Below are positions 40,359 through 50,913 of a stretch of DNA of 64,000 nt, piece after piece. Origin of the DNA: Bacteroidota bacterium. Its GTDB lineage: Bacteria > Bacteroidota > Bacteroidia > Flavobacteriales > BACL11. The notes beneath the pieces were generated by a model. That model worked only from the letters and a program-made list of their open reading frames with translations, was not told the origin of the DNA and did no database searches. The stretch lies in the NCBI GenBank assembly GCA_036339955.1, contig JAYYZX010000025.1, forward strand, positions 66,631 through 130,630, given 5' to 3'. Within the stretch, counting starts at the first letter, position 1; each line of letters starts with the position of its first letter. Position numbers and translations under genes: made by a program.

Positions 40359-41744
40359 ATGAAATATAGAATAGAAAAAGACACAATGGGAAAAATAAAA
40401 GTTCCTGCAAAAAAATACTGGGGGGCACAAACCGAAAGAAGTAGAAATAATTTTAAGATAGGTGCAGAAGCGAGTATGCCTCTAGAAATTATTTATGGTT
40501 TTGCATATCTAAAAAAAGCTGCTGCACATACAAATGCAGAATTGGGAGTGCTTTCAAAAAAGAAAAAATCTTTAATCTCTAAAGTATGTGATGAAATTAT
40601 AAGGGGTGAACATAATGCGGAATTTCCTCTTGTAATATGGCAAACAGGATCTGGGACTCAATCCAATATGAATATAAATGAAGTTGTTGCAAATAGAGCC
40701 CATGTGATTAATGGAGGGTCTTTAAGCGATGAAAAGAAAGTTCTTCATGCAAATGATGATGTAAATAAATCTCAAAGCTCAAATGATACATATCCAACAG
40801 CTATGCATATTGCAGCTTATAAATTACTTATAGATAGTACAATACCAGCACTTAAAAAATTAAGAGATGTACTAAAGAAAAAATCTGGGGATTTTAAAGA
40901 TGTAGTAAAAATTGGGAGAACACATCTAATGGATGCTACCCCATTAACACTAGGACAAGAATTTTCTGGCTATACCTCACAAATTGAGCATGGAATAAAA
41001 GCATTAAAAAATACATTATCACATTTATCAGAATTAGCCCTTGGAGGGACTGCAGTAGGAACCGGTATTAATACACCTAAAGGATATTCTAAATTAGTAG
41101 CAAAAAAAATTGCCGATTTTACAAAACTTCCTTTTATAAGTGCAAAAAATAAATTTGAAGCATTAGCTACTCATGATGCAATGGTAGAGAGTCATGGAGC
41201 ATTAAAACAAATAGCCGTTTCATTAAACAAAATTGCTAATGATATTCGTCTTCTAGCTTCTGGACCAAGAAGTGGAATTGGAGAAATAATAATTCCAGCC
41301 AATGAGCCAGGATCTTCTATTATGCCAGGAAAAGTAAATCCAACGCAATGTGAGGCATTGACTATGATCTGCGCACAAGTAATGGGGAACGACACTGCAA
41401 TTACTGTTGGTGGAGCACAAGGACATTATGAACTTAATGTTTTTAAACCTTTAATTGCAGCAAACTTTCTACAATCTGCAAGGTTGTTAGCAGACGCATG
41501 TAATTCTTTTAATAAAAATTGTGTAAAAGGGATACAGCCAAATCATAAAAATTTAAAACTGAATCTTGATAATTCTCTAATGTTAGTAACAGCTTTAAAT
41601 ACTAAAATTGGATATGAGAAGGCTGCAGAGATCGCAAAAAATGCACACAAAAATGGGACTACATTAAAAGAAGAAGCTATAAAGCTAGGATATGTCTCTG
41701 AAGCAGAATTTAATAAGTGGGTAAATCCAAAAAATATGTGTTAA
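40359..41744 (+). CDS. fumC: class II fumarate hydratase
   Basis: 461 aa; fumarate lyase signature [11 protein letters not shown]. Confidence 0.95.
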
Positions 41745-41746
41745 AT

Positions 41747-41774
41747 AAAAAAACCCTCTATATAGAGGGTTTTT
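41747..41774. terminator. bidirectional intrinsic terminator between fumC and the six-gene secreted-protein operon
   Basis: Perfect 16-nt palindrome CCCTCTATATAGAGGG (41754-41769), flanked by A7 (41747-41753) and T5 (41770-41774). This gives a hairpin plus U-run on either strand. The two gene sets converge here. Confidence 0.75.
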
Positions 41775-41794
41775 TATTTATATATAACTAAGAT

Positions 41795-42460
41795 TTAGTA
41801 CGAAAATAAATAACTCACACCAACTTGCATATTCCTAGTAAAAACGTCAGCATCATCTGACATCGAAGTAAAACCCATGCAATATCTTGCATCTAGAAGT
41901 AGCATATCATTTATCCAGTAAGAGAATCCTATGTTTCCTCCAAATTCGGTCTGTTCAAGACCATCATCATCTGATGAATTTATATCTAGAATTGTCTGCC
42001 CCTGCCACGTGATTTTTACCTCTTCTTTATAATTTGTTCTTATTCCCAAATAAGGTCCAGCATTAATTGAAAATTCATCGGTAACATGAAAATTTCCCAT
42101 GATACCAAGATCTATAAAACCCGCGGATAATTTAGCCTCAAGCTGAGATCCAAGATAATAATAAGTTGCATCTGCAGAAGTAAGTGAACCTTCATATTCA
42201 GCTCCTTTCTGTGTGTAAGTTGCTTCTACAGTATATCTAATTGCTCCATCCCCAAATTGCATAAAAGCTCCAAACATAGGGCCTATAAACATACTTGGTG
42301 CTACGGAAGTAGCTGGGAGGCCTGGCTCAGTATATCCTAGTATATCTGCATCATCACCACCTGCATTTGCCATATTTATTCCTCCTTTTAATCCAAAAGA
42401 TTGTGCGGAGACTCCAAAAGAAAGAAGTCCTGTAAATAATAAGATTATTGTTTTTTTCAT
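41795..42460 (-). CDS. small outer-membrane beta-barrel protein (OMP_b-brl/porin-family-like); island protein F
   Basis: 221 aa. Signal peptide MKKTIILLFTGLLSFGVSA|Q. Mature N-terminus SFGLKGGINMAN and alternating hydrophobic pattern. C-terminal aromatic beta-signal ...VGVSYLFSY. Confidence 0.7.
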   Translation of the reverse strand: MKKTIILLFTGLLSFGVSAQSFGLKGGINMANAGGDDADILGYTEPGLPATSVAPSMFIGPMFGAFMQFGDGAIRYTVEATYTQKGAEYEGSLTSADATYYYLGSQLEAKLSAGFIDLGIMGNFHVTDEFSINAGPYLGIRTNYKEEVKITWQGQTILDINSSDDDGLEQTEFGGNIGFSYWINDMLLLDARYCMGFTSMSDDADVFTRNMQVGVSYLFSY

Positions 42461-42484
42461 AATTCTTGTTTTACTTTTTTAATG

Positions 42485-43582
42485 TTAATCAAAGTTGTTA
42501 ATCCAATGGTATTGCGGCTGAGGTTGATTTTCTCCCCAAGCAACACCTATATCTCTTACTGCTTTAATAGCTTGCTTCTCAAGCTCAACAGCATCATCAT
42601 GTACTTTTAATTTAAAATCCCATTCTCTATCTTCATCAGCTTTTAATTTTCTTTTAATTTGATTTCCTAAAGCCAATGCGTCACTATAGCACTTAGAATC
42701 TGCTGCAACCTCACTTAACCAGCTTCCAGCTCGTCTTGCATCGCCAGAAGACCACGCTCCTTGAGCCTTACCTAAAGCTATAGCGCATCTATGATCTTCA
42801 ATTTTCTTTAATAACGCTTGTGCATCAGCATAACAACTTACATCTGGAAGAATATCTGATAAATAACCTGCAGCTCTATCATAATCATCTTGAGCTATAG
42901 CGGTTCTTGCAGTAGCTATAGCTTCCATACATTCATTCTCCATTTTCATTTTATATACTTTCATTGTAACATCCTGTGCTAGCATGTAACAATCTTTACA
43001 AATCTGTGGTATTGTTACTAAAGTATATATTGCTTCATCAAATTCTTTTCTCCCTGCTGATGCTTCTGCTTCTTTGAGGATAAAATCACATTGAGAATTA
43101 TAATATTCAACTATTTTCTCTCTTGCAGTACTTACAAAACCTTCTATCTCAGGTCTTTTATAAGTAAGCCCTTTTAAAGCCATGATATATGCTTTAGTAG
43201 TTGTTTTACCAACTCCTTTAAGTGAAATTGTAGTGCTCGAAAAAATTTGCTTAGTTGCATTATCTGCCACATATAAGGTTGCATCTAAATTATAGGCATG
43301 CATTGGAGGGGCTGTCGGAGTAATATCCTGTGACATAATATGTACTTTAGGGAACATAATAAATCTATTCCCATAACTAGCCATTCCATTTTTTGATGCA
43401 ATTTGAGCCATTTTAGTTAAAAGTAGTTTCTCAGCAGTCCTTGGCATATCAGGAATATCCCCAACTACTGGACATATTGCTACCCTACCGACATCATCAG
43501 TTTTTCCTAAATCATTCTGAGCATTAACATCCCCAAATAAAAAAAGGAAACCTGATAGAATTAATATAATTGATTTCTTCAT
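42485..43582 (-). CDS. secreted protein of unknown function with three Cys-bracketed helical repeats; island protein E
   Basis: 365 aa. Signal peptide ...FGDVNA|Q. N-terminal ~130-aa module beginning GRVAICPVVGDIPDMP. Three ~50-aa repeats (residues 165-310), each C-x32/33-CY. No family recognised. Confidence 0.75.
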   Translation of the reverse strand: MKKSIILILSGFLFLFGDVNAQNDLGKTDDVGRVAICPVVGDIPDMPRTAEKLLLTKMAQIASKNGMASYGNRFIMFPKVHIMSQDITPTAPPMHAYNLDATLYVADNATKQIFSSTTISLKGVGKTTTKAYIMALKGLTYKRPEIEGFVSTAREKIVEYYNSQCDFILKEAEASAGRKEFDEAIYTLVTIPQICKDCYMLAQDVTMKVYKMKMENECMEAIATARTAIAQDDYDRAAGYLSDILPDVSCYADAQALLKKIEDHRCAIALGKAQGAWSSGDARRAGSWLSEVAADSKCYSDALALGNQIKRKLKADEDREWDFKLKVHDDAVELEKQAIKAVRDIGVAWGENQPQPQYHWINNFD

Positions 43583-43607
43583 AATCTTGTTTTTTAAAAT
43601 TTTAATT

Positions 43608-44570
43608 TTACTTATGTCCTATCCATATTGTATACTCGGTTAAGCCACTTCGCTCTCCTTTAGATTCAAGACCAAAATCTTTAAGATAGTCTCTTAATCT
43701 TTTCCCAAACCTTCCTGCATCTTGTGGTTTTTGCTTCCCATTCTTATCGGTATAGAAATTAGCTATTCGAGTCATCTCAAAAACCATGTAACTCTCAGTA
43801 GCATCACTTAAGTTAAAGTTGTTATTCACTGTATTGTCAGAAACCCAATCTTCAATTACTATCATTAATTCATCATCTCCATAATCTTCAGTTTCTAGAT
43901 CTTCTCCCCAGTCATCCCACACATTAATATTTAAATTAATTTCTCTACCATTTTCATGAATATCAATAAAGTGGTCCATAACTTTATTGCAGAATCCATC
44001 CATATATGAACTTACTGCCTCTTCCATTAACTCAGGTATCCCTGCAGCAAAAGAAGGTTCTCCATTACCAGTAGCTTCTGCAACTAATGTCCCCATACCT
44101 GCATCTAATCCTTCTAAAGTAAACTGGATTGATTTCTTTGGACCGACACGATTGACTGTATAAGTAACCTCCATCCTAATATCTGCTTTTGCAGTCATAT
44201 TTAGCATGTCTGTAGGGCTCAACATTACTGTACCGCCAGTCTTGGTAGACATTCTCATATTTTGATCTGCCATTTTCTTGTCAACCTTATCTAACTGAGC
44301 CTCTAACATTTTCATAGTAAATCCTCTTTGTTTCATTACGCCACTCATTGCAACAAGAACTTGTTTTAATGTTACGTCATCCTCAAATGCTTTTCTAAAA
44401 TTTGGATGATTTTCTATACTCCCTTGATTATTAAAAGTCTTGGTAAACCCATTCTTTTTACACCAGGCCTTACTTGGTACTACCATCACAGATGGTTTCT
44501 TCATCTTTGGTTGCGCAATACTTGTAGCAACAAATAATAGAAGAATTAATAAAATGTTTATTTTTTTCAT
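43608..44570 (-). CDS. secreted protein of unknown function with internal acidic/aromatic block; island protein D
   Basis: 320 aa. Signal peptide ...ATSIA|Q. Mature N-terminus PKMKKPSVMVVPSKAWC. Acidic block WDDWGEDLETEDYGDDELMIVIEDW. No family recognised. Confidence 0.75.
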   Translation of the reverse strand: MKKINILLILLLFVATSIAQPKMKKPSVMVVPSKAWCKKNGFTKTFNNQGSIENHPNFRKAFEDDVTLKQVLVAMSGVMKQRGFTMKMLEAQLDKVDKKMADQNMRMSTKTGGTVMLSPTDMLNMTAKADIRMEVTYTVNRVGPKKSIQFTLEGLDAGMGTLVAEATGNGEPSFAAGIPELMEEAVSSYMDGFCNKVMDHFIDIHENGREINLNINVWDDWGEDLETEDYGDDELMIVIEDWVSDNTVNNNFNLSDATESYMVFEMTRIANFYTDKNGKQKPQDAGRFGKRLRDYLKDFGLESKGERSGLTEYTIWIGHK

Positions 44571-44572
44571 AG

Positions 44573-45052
44573 TTATAAAATATTATCTGTTATTAATTTT
44601 TGTCTCATCCCTTCAACATTTACTCTTACTTTTACCCCATAAACTGTTTGTTGACGAGATTTCTTTCTTGATTTTGGAGATTTTTCAATCTTAATGTAAT
44701 CTTTGTAGTCTTTATTAAAAAACTGATAAACATAAGTTTTATACTTCTCTTTAGCATTAATTTCAATAATTAATGGGTTTATCCTGCAAGATCCTTTGTT
44801 AATCCCATTAAATAGAACATCATTCAGAACATTTCTCTTTGCTTGATCCATAGCTTCTTTCTTCGTGCTCCCTGTTCCCCAGGCTCTGAAGATATAACTT
44901 CCATCTAATTTATCAACCAAACATTCTGTTTTATAATTATAGTAACTTGCTGTATGAGACTGCTTATTACCTCCAAATATCTGAGCATATGAAGGGGCTG
45001 CAACTAAAAAGACTCCTAAAACTAATAGTGATTTAAAAATTTTATTTTTCAT
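44573..45052 (-). CDS. small secreted two-Cys protein, paralog of the upstream gene; island protein C
   Basis: 159 aa. Signal peptide ...APSYA|Q. Shares C..G.Y...AKRN....F.G...G.C...PL and a C-terminal V.V.VN...R..L pattern with protein B. 2-nt gap to protein D. Confidence 0.75.
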   Translation of the reverse strand: MKNKIFKSLLVLGVFLVAAPSYAQIFGGNKQSHTASYYNYKTECLVDKLDGSYIFRAWGTGSTKKEAMDQAKRNVLNDVLFNGINKGSCRINPLIIEINAKEKYKTYVYQFFNKDYKDYIKIEKSPKSRKKSRQQTVYGVKVRVNVEGMRQKLITDNIL

Positions 45053-45069
45053 AATTGTTTTTTTTAAAT

Positions 45070-45591
45070 TTAAAATAAAGAACCAAAACCTTGTATAACT
45101 CCAGCAGCTTCAAGATCTTTTCTTAATAAATCTATATTTACTGCAACATTTAGGCCTACTTTAAACTCTTTTTTACTAATCTTAGTAATGTCTCCTGGCT
45201 CTATACCGCTAGATACCGTAACAAACTTTGTGTACTTACCCCCATCGGCAAAGAAAGATTCGAAGAATTCTTTCTTTTCATTCTCTAAGTTAGGGTTCCG
45301 AGCTAATGGTGGTTTACTGCTACATTTCCCTGCAGATACACCTTTAAAAATAACTCCATGAACTGCATTTCTTTTTGCTTCATCATGAACATAAGCCTTA
45401 GTAGGTTTCTTGGTGTAAGAATATACTTTCAATGAATAAGTCCCTTTCTTTCCTTCTCCAATACATTTAACTTCATATTTCCATTGTTTCGTATTCTTTT
45501 TTGATTTTCTTTTACTACCCCATTGTGCATCAGCACTCATACTGAAAAGCATGAAAAATGCTATTAATGAATATCCTATTGTTTTTTTCAT
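45070..45591 (-). CDS. small secreted two-Cys protein, paralog of the downstream gene; island protein B
   Basis: 173 aa. Signal peptide ...SMSADA|Q. Cys43/Cys90 and AKRN motif align with Cys44/Cys89 and AKRN of protein C. Confidence 0.75.
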   Translation of the reverse strand: MKKTIGYSLIAFFMLFSMSADAQWGSKRKSKKNTKQWKYEVKCIGEGKKGTYSLKVYSYTKKPTKAYVHDEAKRNAVHGVIFKGVSAGKCSSKPPLARNPNLENEKKEFFESFFADGGKYTKFVTVSSGIEPGDITKISKKEFKVGLNVAVNIDLLRKDLEAAGVIQGFGSLF

Positions 45592-45620
45592 ATCTTATTT
45601 ATTATTATTATTGTTATTAT

Positions 45621-46976
45621 TTATTTCATTTGTCGAATTAACATTCCTGGATAATACTTTTTCTTACATTTCTTGAACCATGTTGCTTCAAGAGGTTCGT
45701 CATCTATCTTCTTTTTTACAACATCCTCTACATCTTTCGAGGCATCGGCATCGTTATCTCTAACATAAAACATATTATCCCATATCTTCTTCTTATTAAC
45801 TTTAAGTGTTCCTATCCTTTTATATATCGTCTTGCCAGTTTTCTTGTCTATAGTCTGCTCTAAAACCTCAAACTTCTCTCCCCCTTCAAGGCTTTCTTTC
45901 AAGCCTATCTTTGCAGAACATCTTTTACCTTCAGCCTGATATAAAGGAACCTTAGGCTTAAATACTTCGTTTTCTCTTTGAAGTCTTGAAAATGCTCTAT
46001 CCATAGCTCGTACCGTTGCTTGTGAGAGAATTTCTTCTTGAGTCAAACTTTTTGATGTAATAATTATATCAGTTAACTTAACATTCGAAACAACTCTCTT
46101 AAAGTTTTGCATATCAATAAATTTCAATTGAAAAAGATTTGATTCGTTAAATAATTTAACACGTTTTTCTCGTTCCTCTGGAGTAGTACTTTCATCTACC
46201 CAATAATCATTATAGAAAATTGCTTGTACAGAATCGCTCCAATCTAGCTGATACAAATAACAATCTGTTTCCACTGTATATCCTTGTCTTGCTTTTTCAT
46301 ATAAATCTTTAGCTTTTTTTAATGCTCCACGTTGAAGAAAAAGTGGTGACTCATTTGGTAATGATTCAGCTACTATTTTAGCAAGTTCATATGCAATTAA
46401 AGCTTCTGTTTCATTGTCACGAAAGTCAAAATCATTCACTACAACAAAAGTGCTGCTAATTAACTCAAGACCTGCATCTGCAAGCTGTGTAGAGACAGAC
46501 CTAGATTGAGTTTCTGCTTTTTGGACATCTAACTCACTGGCATTATATTCCCCTCTATCTGCAATTACACTCATATCAAAAGAACCATCATTTGACCGAT
46601 TAAACCATTTCGCAATAAGTTCATTTCCTATCCGAGATGTATGAAAGTATTTGTTAAGCTTTCGATCATTTGATCCTATTTTCTTAAATTTCTTCCTTTC
46701 TTCCTTAGGCATTTCCCCAATCTCTTCTTTCGTTCTTTCAGTAACTTCCATATTCATTACCGTGCCTGCACTTCTAACGTTGTAGTTAAGGTTGTCATAC
46801 TTGTCAGGAAAAGGAGAATTCAAGAATGCAGATCCTATGACTTCTTTATTTGGCATTGATGGATTTTCTGTCATCATCATATGTAGAGAACTTCTTCGGT
46901 ATTTTGGAGCATCTTGTGCAAAAGAAAAGTCTCCAAATAAGAATATAAGAACTCCTAATAAAAAATATTTTTTCAT
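45621..46976 (-). CDS. secreted, highly charged protein of unknown function; island protein A (first gene of the operon)
   Basis: 451 aa. Signal peptide MKKYFLLGVLIFLFGDFSFA|Q. Lys/Glu-rich with no TM segments after the signal. No family recognised. Confidence 0.75.
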   Translation of the reverse strand: MKKYFLLGVLIFLFGDFSFAQDAPKYRRSSLHMMMTENPSMPNKEVIGSAFLNSPFPDKYDNLNYNVRSAGTVMNMEVTERTKEEIGEMPKEERKKFKKIGSNDRKLNKYFHTSRIGNELIAKWFNRSNDGSFDMSVIADRGEYNASELDVQKAETQSRSVSTQLADAGLELISSTFVVVNDFDFRDNETEALIAYELAKIVAESLPNESPLFLQRGALKKAKDLYEKARQGYTVETDCYLYQLDWSDSVQAIFYNDYWVDESTTPEEREKRVKLFNESNLFQLKFIDMQNFKRVVSNVKLTDIIITSKSLTQEEILSQATVRAMDRAFSRLQRENEVFKPKVPLYQAEGKRCSAKIGLKESLEGGEKFEVLEQTIDKKTGKTIYKRIGTLKVNKKKIWDNMFYVRDNDADASKDVEDVVKKKIDDEPLEATWFKKCKKKYYPGMLIRQMK

Positions 46977-47112
46977 CGTCTTTACTTGTTTTGTTTTAGC
47001 CTACTCTATTTATAGATTTTCGACAACCTCTATCTCAAAAAATATAAGGATCAATTATACAAATAAATTATTAATAATAACCAGGATTTAAGTATAAAGA
47101 TTACTTATGCAT

Positions 47113-48177
47113 CTAATGTTTTTTAGCATCAACACTAAATTGCTTTATTTGTTGCTCATCTTCTTTCTTGCAAATCAGAAGAGTGTTATTACATTCTACA
47201 ATGATATACCCTCTCAGCCCTTGCAAAACAACTGTCTTGTTATCTGGCACATTAATAATATTTTCAAAACAATCATATGTTAGCACATTACTTCCAGTAA
47301 TAGCATTTTTATTTTTATTTTTATTTAAATGCGCATATACAGAGCCCCATGTTCCTAAATCACTCCATCCAAAGTCAGCGGGATAAACAAATACATTCTC
47401 AGATTTTTCCATAATACCATAATCAACTGAAATATTTTTACATCCTCCAAAAATTTGCTCTATAAATCGTGATTCTTCTTTTGTATTATAATATTGATTA
47501 CACTCAGAAAAAATTTCATACATGTCAAATAAATGCTTTCTATAAGCTTTAATAATAGATTCTGAATTCCAAATAAACATACCTGAGTTCCATAAGAAAT
47601 CACCACTATCTAAAAACTGTAGAGCTAAATCTTGATTTGGTTTTTCTGTAAATGTTTTGACTTTTCTAATATCTTTATCAAGTGGACTATCCTCAAACTG
47701 AATATAACCATATCCTGTTTCAGGTTTAGAAGGCTTTATCCCTACAGTTAATAATATATCTTGAGTCATGGTTTCTTTCAAACAATTAGTAATAATTCTC
47801 TGGAATTCTATTTCATCAGTAATTAGATGATCTGAAGGAGCTATCAAAATATTAGCATTTGGATTTTGATGATGAATTTTAAAACATGCATAAGCAATAC
47901 AAGGGGCCGTATTTCTCATAATAGGCTCACATAATATATTATTTGAATTGATTTCTGGCAACTGCTCTAGGCATAAGCTCTTATATTTCTTGTTTGTTGC
48001 AATAAAAATATTTTCCTGAGGACAAATAAAAGACAATCTAGAAAATGTTTGCTGAATTAAAGTTTTCCCTAATCCTAGGATATCAATAAACTGCTTCGGA
48101 AAATCAGATCTACTCATAGGCCAAAATCTAGAGCCTACACCTCCAGCCATTATTACTGCATAGTTATTTTTATTCAT
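47113..48177 (-). CDS. manC: mannose-1-phosphate guanylyltransferase (nucleotidyltransferase family)
   Basis: 354 aa; N-terminal AVIMAGGVGSRFWPMSR pyrophosphorylase motif. Confidence 0.85.
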   Translation of the reverse strand: MNKNNYAVIMAGGVGSRFWPMSRSDFPKQFIDILGLGKTLIQQTFSRLSFICPQENIFIATNKKYKSLCLEQLPEINSNNILCEPIMRNTAPCIAYACFKIHHQNPNANILIAPSDHLITDEIEFQRIITNCLKETMTQDILLTVGIKPSKPETGYGYIQFEDSPLDKDIRKVKTFTEKPNQDLALQFLDSGDFLWNSGMFIWNSESIIKAYRKHLFDMYEIFSECNQYYNTKEESRFIEQIFGGCKNISVDYGIMEKSENVFVYPADFGWSDLGTWGSVYAHLNKNKNKNAITGSNVLTYDCFENIINVPDNKTVVLQGLRGYIIVECNNTLLICKKEDEQQIKQFSVDAKKH

Positions 48178-48235: not shown

Positions 48236-48826
48236 TTAAGTATCTGTTTCAAAAACTTCAATTAAGGGATGCATTAGATATATTTTTTTTGATTCTACTT
48301 CAATACATCTAAATCTCTTCCTTAATCTAACTCCTTTAATAAATTTTCTCTGATTACTAAGGTAGAAGATCTCCCCTTCTTTAATATCTGATATGGTTTT
48401 CTTTAAAGAAGAGTCATACTGTCTTAAACAGCTATATAATATTATATCTGTAGTAGTAGAAGCAGAAGGAGAAATAAGATGCTTACTTAAGTTTTTAATA
48501 ATATCTTCAGGGAAAATATCAGGATTTAAAAAGTTTAGCATAAGGCTCTTATACATTTCTTTCCACTCTTTTCCATGAGGAGAAACACTACTCTTATGTG
48601 TCTGCCAAACAAATGCATGAGCAATCTCATGTGTTAATGTAATTAAAAATAAATATGGGTTTAAATTTTTATTAATAGTAATTGTAAGATTATTATGGGT
48701 TGGCCTGAAATCTCCTAATTTTGTTTTTCTATCGTTTCTTAAAATAATTTTTAAATCAAGATGATTAATCCATTTCTTAATATACTTAATACTATTATTT
48801 GGTATTTTATCATATATATTGCTCAT
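48236..48826 (-). CDS. SprT-like zinc metallopeptidase-domain protein
   Basis: 196 aa; HExxH (LTHEIAHAF) in a SprT-like context. Confidence 0.65.
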   Translation of the reverse strand: MSNIYDKIPNNSIKYIKKWINHLDLKIILRNDRKTKLGDFRPTHNNLTITINKNLNPYLFLITLTHEIAHAFVWQTHKSSVSPHGKEWKEMYKSLMLNFLNPDIFPEDIIKNLSKHLISPSASTTTDIILYSCLRQYDSSLKKTISDIKEGEIFYLSNQRKFIKGVRLRKRFRCIEVESKKIYLMHPLIEVFETDT

Positions 48827-50913
48827 TAACTCAATAATTGAAATGCAATAAAACTAGAAATATAAGCTAAGCAACCCATATAAACAAATTGAATAATTGG
48901 CCATTTCCATCGATTAGTCTCTCTGTACACAATAGCTAATGTACTCATGCATTGCATCGCAAAGGCATAAAAAAGCATTAAAGATATTGACACTGCTGGC
49001 GTAAAAAACATTTGACCTGTTTCAGAGTTTCTTACGTTTAACAATCGTTCTCTAACAGAATATATAGAACCTCCATCTTGGACGCTATAAATAGTAGACA
49101 TTGTACCTACAAAAACTTCTCTAGCTGCAAAAGATGTTATAAGGGCAATACCTATTTTCCAATCAAAACCTAATGGTTTAATAATTGGCTCAATGGATTT
49201 TCCAAGTATTCCTGCATAAGAAGCTTCAAGCTTCTCAGAAGCAATATGTAAATTGGCGTCTTGATGGTGTTCCCATTTAGCTTCTATCTTCTGAAACTCT
49301 TTTTTAGGACCATACGAAGATAATGCCCATAAAATAATTGAAATCATTACAATGACTTTTCCTGCATCAAATATAAAAACCTTTAGTTTCTCAAAAATAG
49401 TATATAAGACTGTTTTCCAATCAGGAATCTTATAAGAGGGGAGTTCCATTATATAATAAGACCGCTTCTTACTCTTAAGTATGTGCTTAAAAACAAATGC
49501 TGAGAGAATAGTTGCTAAGAATCCTATTAAGTAAAACGACATCATAATCAAACCTTGTAAATTAAATGGGCCTATAGCTGCTTCTTCAGAAATCATAACA
49601 GAAATAATTAAAATATAAACTGGCAATCGAGCTGCACAACTCATCAATGGAGTTACCATAATAGTGATTAATCTTTCCTTCCATCCTGGAATTGTTCTAG
49701 CAGACATTATAGCTGGAACAGCACATGCAATACCACTTAATAATGGAATCACAGATCTGCCATTTAATCCAACCTTTTTTAAAAACTTGTCGGTTATAAA
49801 ACTGACTCGAGCCATATAGCCTGTGTCTTCTAATAATACAATAAATGCAAATAAAAATGCAATTTGTGGAATAAAAATCATAATGCCAGCAAGCCCTGCT
49901 AATACCCCTTTAACTATTAAATCATTTAGCATTCCGCTAGGGAGCACTGAAGATACCCAATCTGATATCGTTGTAAAAAGGGAATCAATAATTTCCATTG
50001 GATATTCAGACCAAGAAAATACAGCTTGAAATATTAAGAATAAGATAGATAAGAAAATAAAATAACCTAAAACTGGATGCATTAAAATATTATCAATCTT
50101 CTTAGTAAGAAGGTGTTTCCCCTTTGGATTTCCTTCACGGGTACATTGATGCACAATCTCATCTATTTTTTTATATCGCCTTACTATCTCTTTTGCTTGA
50201 GCTCTCTCAGGGACAAAATTGAATTTATTATATAAGCCATCTAACCCTATTCGGTTTTTAGTTTCGCAATTCAAATCTTGTCTGCATAACAAAAGAAAAG
50301 AAGTGTAATCATTGCTATTATTATTCCATTCATTCGCAGCATCAATTATATTTGGAAAAACAGTCTTGATATCTAAAAAATCTTGATCAGAATTATTCTG
50401 TATAACATAAGGAATCTTTGATTTAAGATTGTCAATCCCCTCTCTATTACGTGCGTTAATTGCAACAACTTCTATTCCTAATTTACTACTTAATAGCCCC
50501 ACATCAACAATTATACCTCTCCTTAAAGCAAGATCTACCATATTTAAAGCTAAAATTGTTTTCTTCTTCATGTCAATAAGCTGAGAAAGTAATAGAAGAG
50601 ATCTTCTAAGATTAGTAGCGTCAGCAATAACTATAGCAATATCTGGCTGTAAGTCATTTAATTGATCACACAATACTTGTTGAGTTATTCTTTCATCTAT
50701 TGATTTAGGAAAAATGCTATATGTTCCTGGTAAATCAATAATATCAGCATCATAATCTTCATTAATATTACATCTTCCAACTCTTTTTTCTACTGTAATT
50801 CCTGGATAATTACCTACCTTTTGATTCAGACCAGTCAATGCATTAAAAAGAGTTGATTTTCCAGAGTTTGGATTCCCCGCCAATGCTATTCTAATATTTC
50901 TCTTTTTATTCAT
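48826..50913 (-). CDS. feoB: ferrous iron transporter FeoB
   Basis: 695 aa; N-terminal G-domain GNPNSGKSTLFNALTG followed by a polytopic membrane domain. Confidence 0.95.
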   Translation of the reverse strand: MNKKRNIRIALAGNPNSGKSTLFNALTGLNQKVGNYPGITVEKRVGRCNINEDYDADIIDLPGTYSIFPKSIDERITQQVLCDQLNDLQPDIAIVIADATNLRRSLLLLSQLIDMKKKTILALNMVDLALRRGIIVDVGLLSSKLGIEVVAINARNREGIDNLKSKIPYVIQNNSDQDFLDIKTVFPNIIDAANEWNNNSNDYTSFLLLCRQDLNCETKNRIGLDGLYNKFNFVPERAQAKEIVRRYKKIDEIVHQCTREGNPKGKHLLTKKIDNILMHPVLGYFIFLSILFLIFQAVFSWSEYPMEIIDSLFTTISDWVSSVLPSGMLNDLIVKGVLAGLAGIMIFIPQIAFLFAFIVLLEDTGYMARVSFITDKFLKKVGLNGRSVIPLLSGIACAVPAIMSARTIPGWKERLITIMVTPLMSCAARLPVYILIISVMISEEAAIGPFNLQGLIMMSFYLIGFLATILSAFVFKHILKSKKRSYYIMELPSYKIPDWKTVLYTIFEKLKVFIFDAGKVIVMISIILWALSSYGPKKEFQKIEAKWEHHQDANLHIASEKLEASYAGILGKSIEPIIKPLGFDWKIGIALITSFAAREVFVGTMSTIYSVQDGGSIYSVRERLLNVRNSETGQMFFTPAVSISLMLFYAFAMQCMSTLAIVYRETNRWKWPIIQFVYMGCLAYISSFIAFQLLS

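Follow-up and report, generated by a model that had tools for sequence, protein, structure and literature searches.

A widespread, uncharacterised gene cluster of Bacteroidota for a probable multi-subunit envelope system of a known ring-forming fold class

What kind of system is encoded by six adjacent genes whose products are all exported and among which there is no enzyme? The question is raised by a 64,000-nt stretch of DNA from a Bacteroidota bacterium (Flavobacteriales, BACL11; GenBank assembly GCA_036339955.1, contig JAYYZX010000025.1, positions 66,631 to 130,630), hereafter the window. In it, six consecutive minus-strand genes, A to F, are separated by 29, 17, 2, 25 and 24 nt, as calculated from the coordinates of the open reading frames (ORFs). 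The ORF listing reproduces exactly the coordinates and gaps given in a preliminary description of this DNA, and the translations of all six genes agree with what was said there of their N-termini. Each product starts with MKK or MKN, continues with a hydrophobic stretch and reaches a cleavage site in which a small residue, Ala in every case here, is followed by Gln, and none of the six carries a lipobox Cys. A Gln at position +1 is the pattern known as the Q-rule of Bacteroidetes (PMC5837995), and it is conserved in the A, B, D and E families. The answer reached here is that A-B-(C)-D-E, widespread and so far uncharacterised, is an envelope system of several probable subunits that draws on a fold class known for forming rings. 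The core of the preliminary description, a conserved, all-exported, enzyme-free and undescribed envelope multiprotein system, is upheld by the fixed gene order, by the negative profile searches and by a negative literature search.

Relatives of D were scanned with one genome per species and were found in at least 549 species; 80 species-level loci were kept, and their gene order was mapped by tblastn and ORF mapping. In every one of the 80 loci the gene directly after D is E, and the median distance between the two is 13 nt. The order ABDE occurs in 40 loci, ABCDE in 22 and ABCDEF in 2, and the remaining 16 variants are explained by contig ends, relocation of A to a position after E, or fusions. 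C is present in 33 loci, and an F-like gene in only three (L001, L048 and L020). The loci come from Flavobacteriales, Bacteroidales, Chitinophagales and Cytophagales, plus a few oddly labelled metagenome-assembled genomes (MAGs), and a gene spacing of 0-30 nt is kept together with the order across at least four orders. The arrangement is not due to chance, as its recurrence in 80 loci of different species shows. Conserved co-occurrence in a fixed order, which the preliminary description proposed as a check on all six genes, holds for A-B-(C)-D-E and fails for F. The conserved unit is A-B-(C)-D-E and not six genes, and F, once proposed as a dedicated barrel subunit, is a lineage-specific accessory.

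Clustering of all other flanking ORFs of the 80 loci revealed no conserved extra partner. The best-shared flank family, an ABC ATPase, is found in 19 of the 80 loci, at variable distance and in related lineages only, and a Pfam census of the 82 immediate same-strand neighbours returned only unrelated housekeeping genes among the 25 most frequent of 92 families. Since the order is fixed and no flanking partner is conserved, the functional unit is A-B-(C)-D-E, without an enzyme, ATPase, regulator or inner-membrane protein.

Several loci of the collection have peculiarities of their own. In a Crocinitomicaceae MAG, a second, partial copy A-B-C directly follows the first A-B-D-E (L017:10013-12827). 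In six Bacteroidales loci, E is followed by a gene for an exported protein of ~430 aa with a 'GRGKTIDEAKDQ' motif (e.g. L030:7719-9020); this protein, for which Pfam gives no match, could be an additional subunit specific to the lineage. Some carriers (L038, L052, P0023, P0040 and P0244) are labelled as Oscillospiraceae, Chlorobiota, Proteobacteria or Chloroflexia MAGs, and these labels outside the Bacteroidota are probably binning errors, except possibly that of the Chlorobiota.

Sequence comparison provided few names for the encoded proteins. In the window set, Pfam matches are restricted to DUF6175 in D, OMP_b-brl_2 in F and a short TPR-type stretch in E, while A, B and C have no Pfam match, and NCBIfam and PADLOC searches of the six proteins returned nothing beyond this result. 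Searches of the sequences of every PDB chain, with A, B/C, D and E both as single sequences and as family profiles, found no significant match in a set that would include the solved components of type IX secretion, gliding and the Bacteroidota BAM machinery; A-E consequently have no detectable sequence relative with a solved structure. Pfam scans of the individual members of the A, B/C and E families gave no recurrent link to FlgT, LPP20, CsgG or Sel1. In a profile-profile comparison of A, B/C, D and E, only B and C were related; an N-terminal domain common to D and E, as had been suggested, found no support at this level. In the literature library searched, no publication was found on the cluster or DUF6175, and nothing relevant on FlgT-like proteins or on FlgT in Bacteroidota. 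The statement that A-E match no family that can be named stands for A, B, C and E as far as profiles go, and has to be amended for D, a DUF6175 protein, and for A, whose predicted fold is FlgT-like. Confident matches to a characterised system were not found, since what was matched are folds and not memberships.

Protein A (45621-46976, minus strand; 451 aa) has a signal peptide of aa 1-20 and is cleaved between SFA and Q21 (SFA/QD). Directly after the cleavage site lies a KYRRSSL strand that is conserved in the family, followed by a helical region, an alpha/beta part (~aa 176-335) and a beta domain (~aa 343-449). The preliminary description called A very rich in Lys and Glu; at 19.7% K+E it is only moderately so, and the strongly basic proteins of the cluster are B and C (net charge +16 each). 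Its homologs, more than 1379, are all unnamed and without a Pfam domain. An AlphaFold2 model of A built from 89 sequences (pLDDT 82.6, pTM 0.79) had just two strong Foldseek matches in the PDB, each to a structure of FlgT. One is the crystal structure 3w1e (E 1.9e-5, probability 1.0, 461 aligned columns), the other 8z5n, which shows FlgT within the Vibrio LPHT ring (E 7.4e-5). The next match was the decameric lipoprotein TraT, with an E value of 0.03. Superposed over the whole chain, A and FlgT give TM scores of 0.19-0.22 and a root-mean-square deviation of 14.6 Å (3w1e), i.e. the domains match and their arrangement differs. The window protein has no Pfam match of any kind at E ≤ 1, and FlgT is absent among 25 of the 32 Pfam families listed for the 89 A homologs. 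The model suggests that A has a FlgT-like three-part fold and would not be an orphan in structure.

Protein D (43608-44570, minus strand; 320 aa; signal peptide aa 1-19, cleavage between SIA and Q20, SIA/QP) is the most conserved protein of the set, with a mean column identity of 60%. It matches Pfam PF19672 (DUF6175) over the complete profile (positions 1-293 of 293; E 5e-92, 308.6 bits against a cut-off of 23), a family that is a sequence grouping only, with no function or structure attached. The AlphaFold model (77 sequences, pLDDT 85.3, pTM 0.75) consists of an N-terminal alpha/beta domain of the CsgG/PelC/PqiC/GNA1162 class and a second alpha/beta domain. Foldseek matched it to GNA1162 (E 3.2e-4), CsgG (1.2e-3), XCC0632/DUF330 (2.8e-3) and FlgT (3.3e-3), to the PelC dodecamers with target-normalised TM scores of 0.59-0.64, and to the C-terminal domain of LpoB (E 0.04), with HpaA and the LptE-like CC_3750 also among the matches. 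Of the likeness to TolB-N, LpoB and CsgG that had been guessed from the start of the mature chain, the CsgG part is borne out and the LpoB part more weakly so, and TolB is absent among the best 50 matches listed. GNA1162, CsgG, PelC and PqiC belong to a group of outer membrane (OM) lipoproteins that share one alpha/beta core, and nearly the same list of structural matches has been reported for a PqiC-like lipoprotein (PMC13631591). Judged by its model, D shares this periplasmic core. At the sequence level, families of the csg, pel or pqi type have no Pfam or NCBIfam match to the window proteins and are not among the neighbour families listed.

The acidic and aromatic block noted earlier in the centre of D is present, as VWDDWGEDLETEDYGDDEL. 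It belongs to a loop at aa 218-234 (WDDWGEDLETEDYGDDE; 43869-43919, minus strand), modelled as coil between a strand (209-217) and a helix (235-245), in which D219, D224 and L225 are near-invariant and E234 and the adjoining L235 invariant. Among 80 D homologs, 76 have a site of the small-residue-Q type and one has a lipobox-like motif.

B (45070-45591, minus strand; 173 aa; signal peptide aa 1-22, cleavage between ADA and Q23, ADA/QW) and C (44573-45052, minus strand; 159 aa; cleavage between SYA and Q24, SYA/QI) are paralogs, as had been recognised: they are 25% identical by tblastn and are related by hhalign with a probability of 99.9 (E 6e-32). An exhaustive search with the B/C profile collected 1610 representatives at 50% identity. 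Both proteins have a net charge of +16, and D one of -7. B has conserved Cys residues at 43 and 90, and the family alignment shows a C-terminal tail G-I-x-x-x-L-x-x-G-F, most homologs ending in ...GF. LPP20 is absent among 25 of the 31 Pfam families listed for 52 B/C sequences, and the B/C family profile retrieved nothing from the PDB sequences, i.e. no match of the LPP20/FlgP type at the sequence level.

In two loci, L030 and L066, B and D are one protein: the C-terminus of B joins the N-terminus of mature D (...GIVKSLSNVMGK-AKKPTIMVVPSD...) and replaces the signal peptide of D, so that the two proteins are joined at the conserved tail of B. When the B domain of the L030 fusion served as the query, 21 proteins and no full-length fusion were obtained; the exhaustive profile search found many. 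Among the best 150 B-family representatives, at least 16 have a length of 456-520 aa, and all eight proteins of this length that were tested have a complete DUF6175 after the B domain, with a partial DUF6175 in a ninth tested protein of 275 aa (P0361). As Rosetta-stone evidence, these natural fusions suggest that B and D are in contact. The family also includes tandem B-B proteins (P0262, 312 aa; P0267, 301 aa), a parallel to the separate B and C genes.

How the system is held at the membrane appears to vary between species. Of the 33 C orthologs 21 have a lipobox, as do two of the 74 B orthologs, and it is absent from B and C of the window; in orthologs of A, B, D and E the small-residue-Q site is almost always present. 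C would on these counts be a lipoprotein in most other species, and C of the window appears to have lost its lipobox. The genome of the window, like that of its closest relative, L001, also encodes the extra barrel F after E; the lost lipobox and the extra F may represent an anchor swap. F itself (41795-42460, minus strand; 221 aa; cleavage after VSA, before Q, VSA/QS) matches Pfam OMP_b-brl_2 (E 1.7e-11; score 45 bits, cut-off 27) and ends in ...YLFSY, confirming the earlier assignment as a small OM beta-barrel with a C-terminal aromatic residue. Its family consists of barrels of OmpA/OmpX size and not of porins.

A barrel also occurs fused to A. Nine long A variants of 560-616 aa (L020:10715-12532, L040:10173-12023, L017:10013-11782, L030:3184-4977, L049:5722-7404, L063:4550-6373, L066:5558-7348, L073:5622-7457 and L075:2110-3798) extend by ~190 aa beyond the C-terminal limit of A homology, and eight of the nine extensions end in an OM protein beta-signal with terminal Phe (...GVGFKF, ...LSLRINF, ...VGLKVMF). 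In Pfam, two of the extensions have sub-threshold matches to OMP_b-brl and one to DUF6588. The recurrence of the C lipobox, of the A-fused barrel and of a separate barrel such as F suggests three interchangeable devices that would tie the complex to the OM. The fused barrels were also considered as relatives of F, and hhalign finds no relation; they are different barrel families. Still longer variants of A (650-927 aa; L002:4250-6946, L031:4078-6858 and L079:4806-6755) have an extra N-terminal region with sub-threshold similarity to DUF2846.

The last member of the conserved unit, E (42485-43582, minus strand; 365 aa; signal peptide aa 1-21, cleavage between VNA and Q22, VNA/QN), consists of an N-terminal domain and a Cys-rich TPR-like helical region at ~aa 165-298. 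The Cys-bracketed helical repeats of the preliminary description were found again: the protein has eight Cys, seven of which are spread through the region with TPR-type matches. The Pfam match of E, to ARM_TT21, is a weak one of 31.4 bits (cut-off 27) over a single 38-residue stretch (aa 221-258). At E ≤ 1, ARM_TT21 is matched by 25 of 55 E homologs and TPR_19 by 10.

Two known systems resemble the cluster most, and it is a member of neither. One is the H ring of the polar flagellum of Vibrio, on which the T ring (MotX/MotY) docks. In the H ring, FlgT assembles together with the lipoprotein FlgP into a 26-mer ring, the C-terminal tail of FlgP lies in a groove of the FlgT ring, and FlgT is known in open and closed forms (bioRxiv 10.64898/2025.12.04.692373). 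Similar to this system, FlgT is the only strong structural match of A, covering all three parts of the chain, and the cluster encodes a small protein, C, that by its lipobox would be a lipoprotein in most species, as well as a probable helical-repeat protein, E; all of its proteins are exported and none is an enzyme. The ...GF tail of the B family recalls the docking of the FlgP tail in the FlgT ring and is mentioned as a lead only; a FlgP-like role of B/C and a MotX-like role of E are likewise leads drawn by analogy. Unlike the H ring, the cluster has no sequence similarity to FlgT families, the domains of A are differently arranged (TM ~0.2), and neither the conserved neighbour clusters nor the 25 commonest Pfam families of the immediate neighbours in the 80 loci include a flagellar one. 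Bacteroidota are not known to be flagellated.

The other system is the class of CsgG, PelC, PqiC (DUF330), GNA1162 (DUF799) and LptE, whose alpha/beta core is found in the N-terminal domain of D. Its characterised members reside on the inner face of the OM, and CsgG, PelC and PqiC-like proteins form rings of 8 to 12 subunits there (PMC13631591). D differs from them in being cleaved by signal peptidase I and not lipidated, in its second domain and its conserved acidic loop, and in having no Pfam match to the class; the cluster is not accompanied by curli, pel, pqi or lpt genes. Within DUF6175, D is a full-length member, whereas its obligatory partners A, B and E are without any family. The cluster is most like the polar-flagellar accessory rings and the CsgG/PelC/PqiC class and belongs to none of these, because sequence membership fails, D and A are not lipoproteins and the defining gene contexts are absent.

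The genes, their export signals, the synteny, the fusions, the fold class and the anchor variants lead us to a reading to which we give an even chance: A, B, (C), D and E would be subunits of one hetero-oligomeric, probably ring-shaped complex on the side of the OM that faces the periplasm. All subunits would be exported by Sec, cleaved by signal peptidase I and left with the N-terminal Gln of the Q-rule. The FlgT-like A and the CsgG/PelC/PqiC-like D would act as ring-forming alpha/beta modules, in analogy to their characterised relatives, every one of which appears to form homo-oligomeric rings under the OM. The basic B would dock on the acidic D, in keeping with the complementary charges of B/C and D. 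C, the paralog of B, would be the lipid anchor in most species; in the window organism, where C has apparently lost its lipobox, the separate small barrel F encoded after E may serve instead, and in other species the barrel that A carries at its C-terminus. E is likely to act as an adaptor to a partner through its TPR-like domain. Given a cluster without an enzyme, an ATPase or an inner-membrane component, the complex may play a passive part, as a structural collar or vestibule by which something at the OM is organised or stabilised. A role as a fibre or in secretion would be speculation.

Beyond the pairing of B and D, we infer complex formation, the ring shape, the topology and the function of the cluster, and several observations weigh against the ring complex. 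Ring formation is extrapolated from fold relatives of monomer models of A and D, and the fold evidence covers the models of these two proteins. The whole-chain TM score of ~0.2 restricts the similarity of A to FlgT to the domain level, and query-normalised TM scores of 0.26-0.29 do the same for D. Pfam scans gave no sequence-level link to FlgT, CsgG, PelC or LPP20. Neither D nor A is a lipoprotein, unlike CsgG, PelC, PqiC, LptE and LpoB, and half of the loci, the 40 of the ABDE type, encode no obvious membrane anchor. Finally, the flanks of the 80 loci contain no partner or cargo gene linked to the cluster.

A different function of the same proteins, possible but on balance unlikely, is that of a periplasmic vestibule for an OM export route, which would guide a polymer or protein to an OM pore as PelC does for PelB and CsgG for curli, with the conserved acidic loop of D lining a charged funnel. 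The fold of D, which matches both CsgG and PelC (the latter with target-normalised TM scores up to 0.64), the docking of PelC rings on a porin (PMC13631591), the conservation of the loop and the recurrence of a barrel gene or barrel fusion all speak for such a route. However, the 80 loci have no conserved gene beside the cluster for a substrate, a synthase, a glycosyltransferase or an inner-membrane exporter, F is a small barrel of OmpA/OmpX size rather than a porin and is absent from most loci, and D is not lipidated. A device handling lipid or lipopolysaccharide (LPS) at the OM, with a function like that of LptE or the PqiC-type lipoproteins, is improbable: the PqiC-like XCC0632 and the LptE-like CC_3750 are among the structural matches of D (classification of PMC13631591), but the cluster lacks a linked MCE, LptD-like or ABC component, and D has no lipid anchor. 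The ABC ATPase of the flanks is confined to 19 of 80 loci in related lineages and is variably placed. Quite improbable, too, is an LpoB- or TolB-like role in the periplasm, in which the proteins would regulate peptidoglycan synthesis or envelope spacing or serve as a scaffold for it. The LpoB C-terminal domain does occur among the matches of D, but the match (E 0.04) is weak and generic for the fold, and no penicillin-binding protein, Tol-Pal component or OmpA-like peptidoglycan-binding domain is found in A-F by Pfam or among the conserved neighbours. That the genes encode co-transcribed exported proteins acting separately, for instance in stress or nutrient binding, would suit a cluster known here from its genes alone, with A, B/C, D and E mutually unrelated in sequence, but is very improbable, given that the gene order is preserved, with 0-30 nt between genes, in at least four taxonomic orders and that B-D and A-barrel fusions are repeated.

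The ring complex of A, B, (C), D and E can also be read more broadly, as an undescribed Bacteroidota-wide, OM-tethered periplasmic ring machine that parallels the flagellar H/T accessory rings in a phylum without flagella. The parallel would comprise a FlgT-like ring former, a small lipoprotein with a docking tail and a helical-repeat adaptor. Such a machine, a distinctly doubtful proposition, could be the collar or bushing of a trans-envelope apparatus, e.g. the gliding/type IX secretion motor, or a new OM export vestibule.

The surroundings of the genes in the window bear on their expression. The hairpin AAAAAACCCTCTATATAGAGGGTTTTTT (41748-41775, strand not assigned) is a palindrome of 12 pairs flanked by an A-run and a T-run, resembles an intrinsic terminator and agrees with the bidirectional terminator described earlier downstream of F. 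It lies between F, which ends at 41795, and a convergent fumarase-like ORF ending at 41744, and is common to both. The terminator scan found no terminator-like site on the minus strand inside the cluster. Upstream of A, the 136-nt AT-rich intergenic region at 46977-47112 (minus strand) is the presumed promoter region; it contains no exact copy of the strict Bacteroidota -7 motif TAnnTTTG, and a scan of it for sigma-70-type promoters did not rise above the shuffled expectation. The G+C content of the window is 29.9%. From the spacing only, the six genes may form a single transcript, the promoter of which was not located. Reading of the translations alone suggests a class II fumarate hydratase at 40359-41744 (plus strand), a nucleotidyltransferase of the mannose-1-phosphate guanylyltransferase type at 47113-48177 (minus strand) and FeoB at 48826-50913 (minus strand), and none of these neighbours is conserved beside the cluster in other species.

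The envelopes of Bacteroidota differ from the proteobacterial model, for example in BAM, Lol, type IX secretion and gliding. The cluster studied here occurs in hundreds of species at the least, with carriers ranging from marine Flavobacteriales to Bacteroidales of the gut and rumen; Pfam has no entry for three of its four protein families, and no publication on any of the four was found in the library searched. It now has an architecture that can be tested, with a FlgT-like A, a CsgG/PelC-like D, a B-D contact suggested by natural fusions and three apparently interchangeable OM anchors. If the ring is real, the alpha/beta ring module of flagellar H rings, curli, Pel and Pqi would also be used by a separate, widespread system, and whatever this system binds or carries would add something new to the biology of the Bacteroidota envelope.

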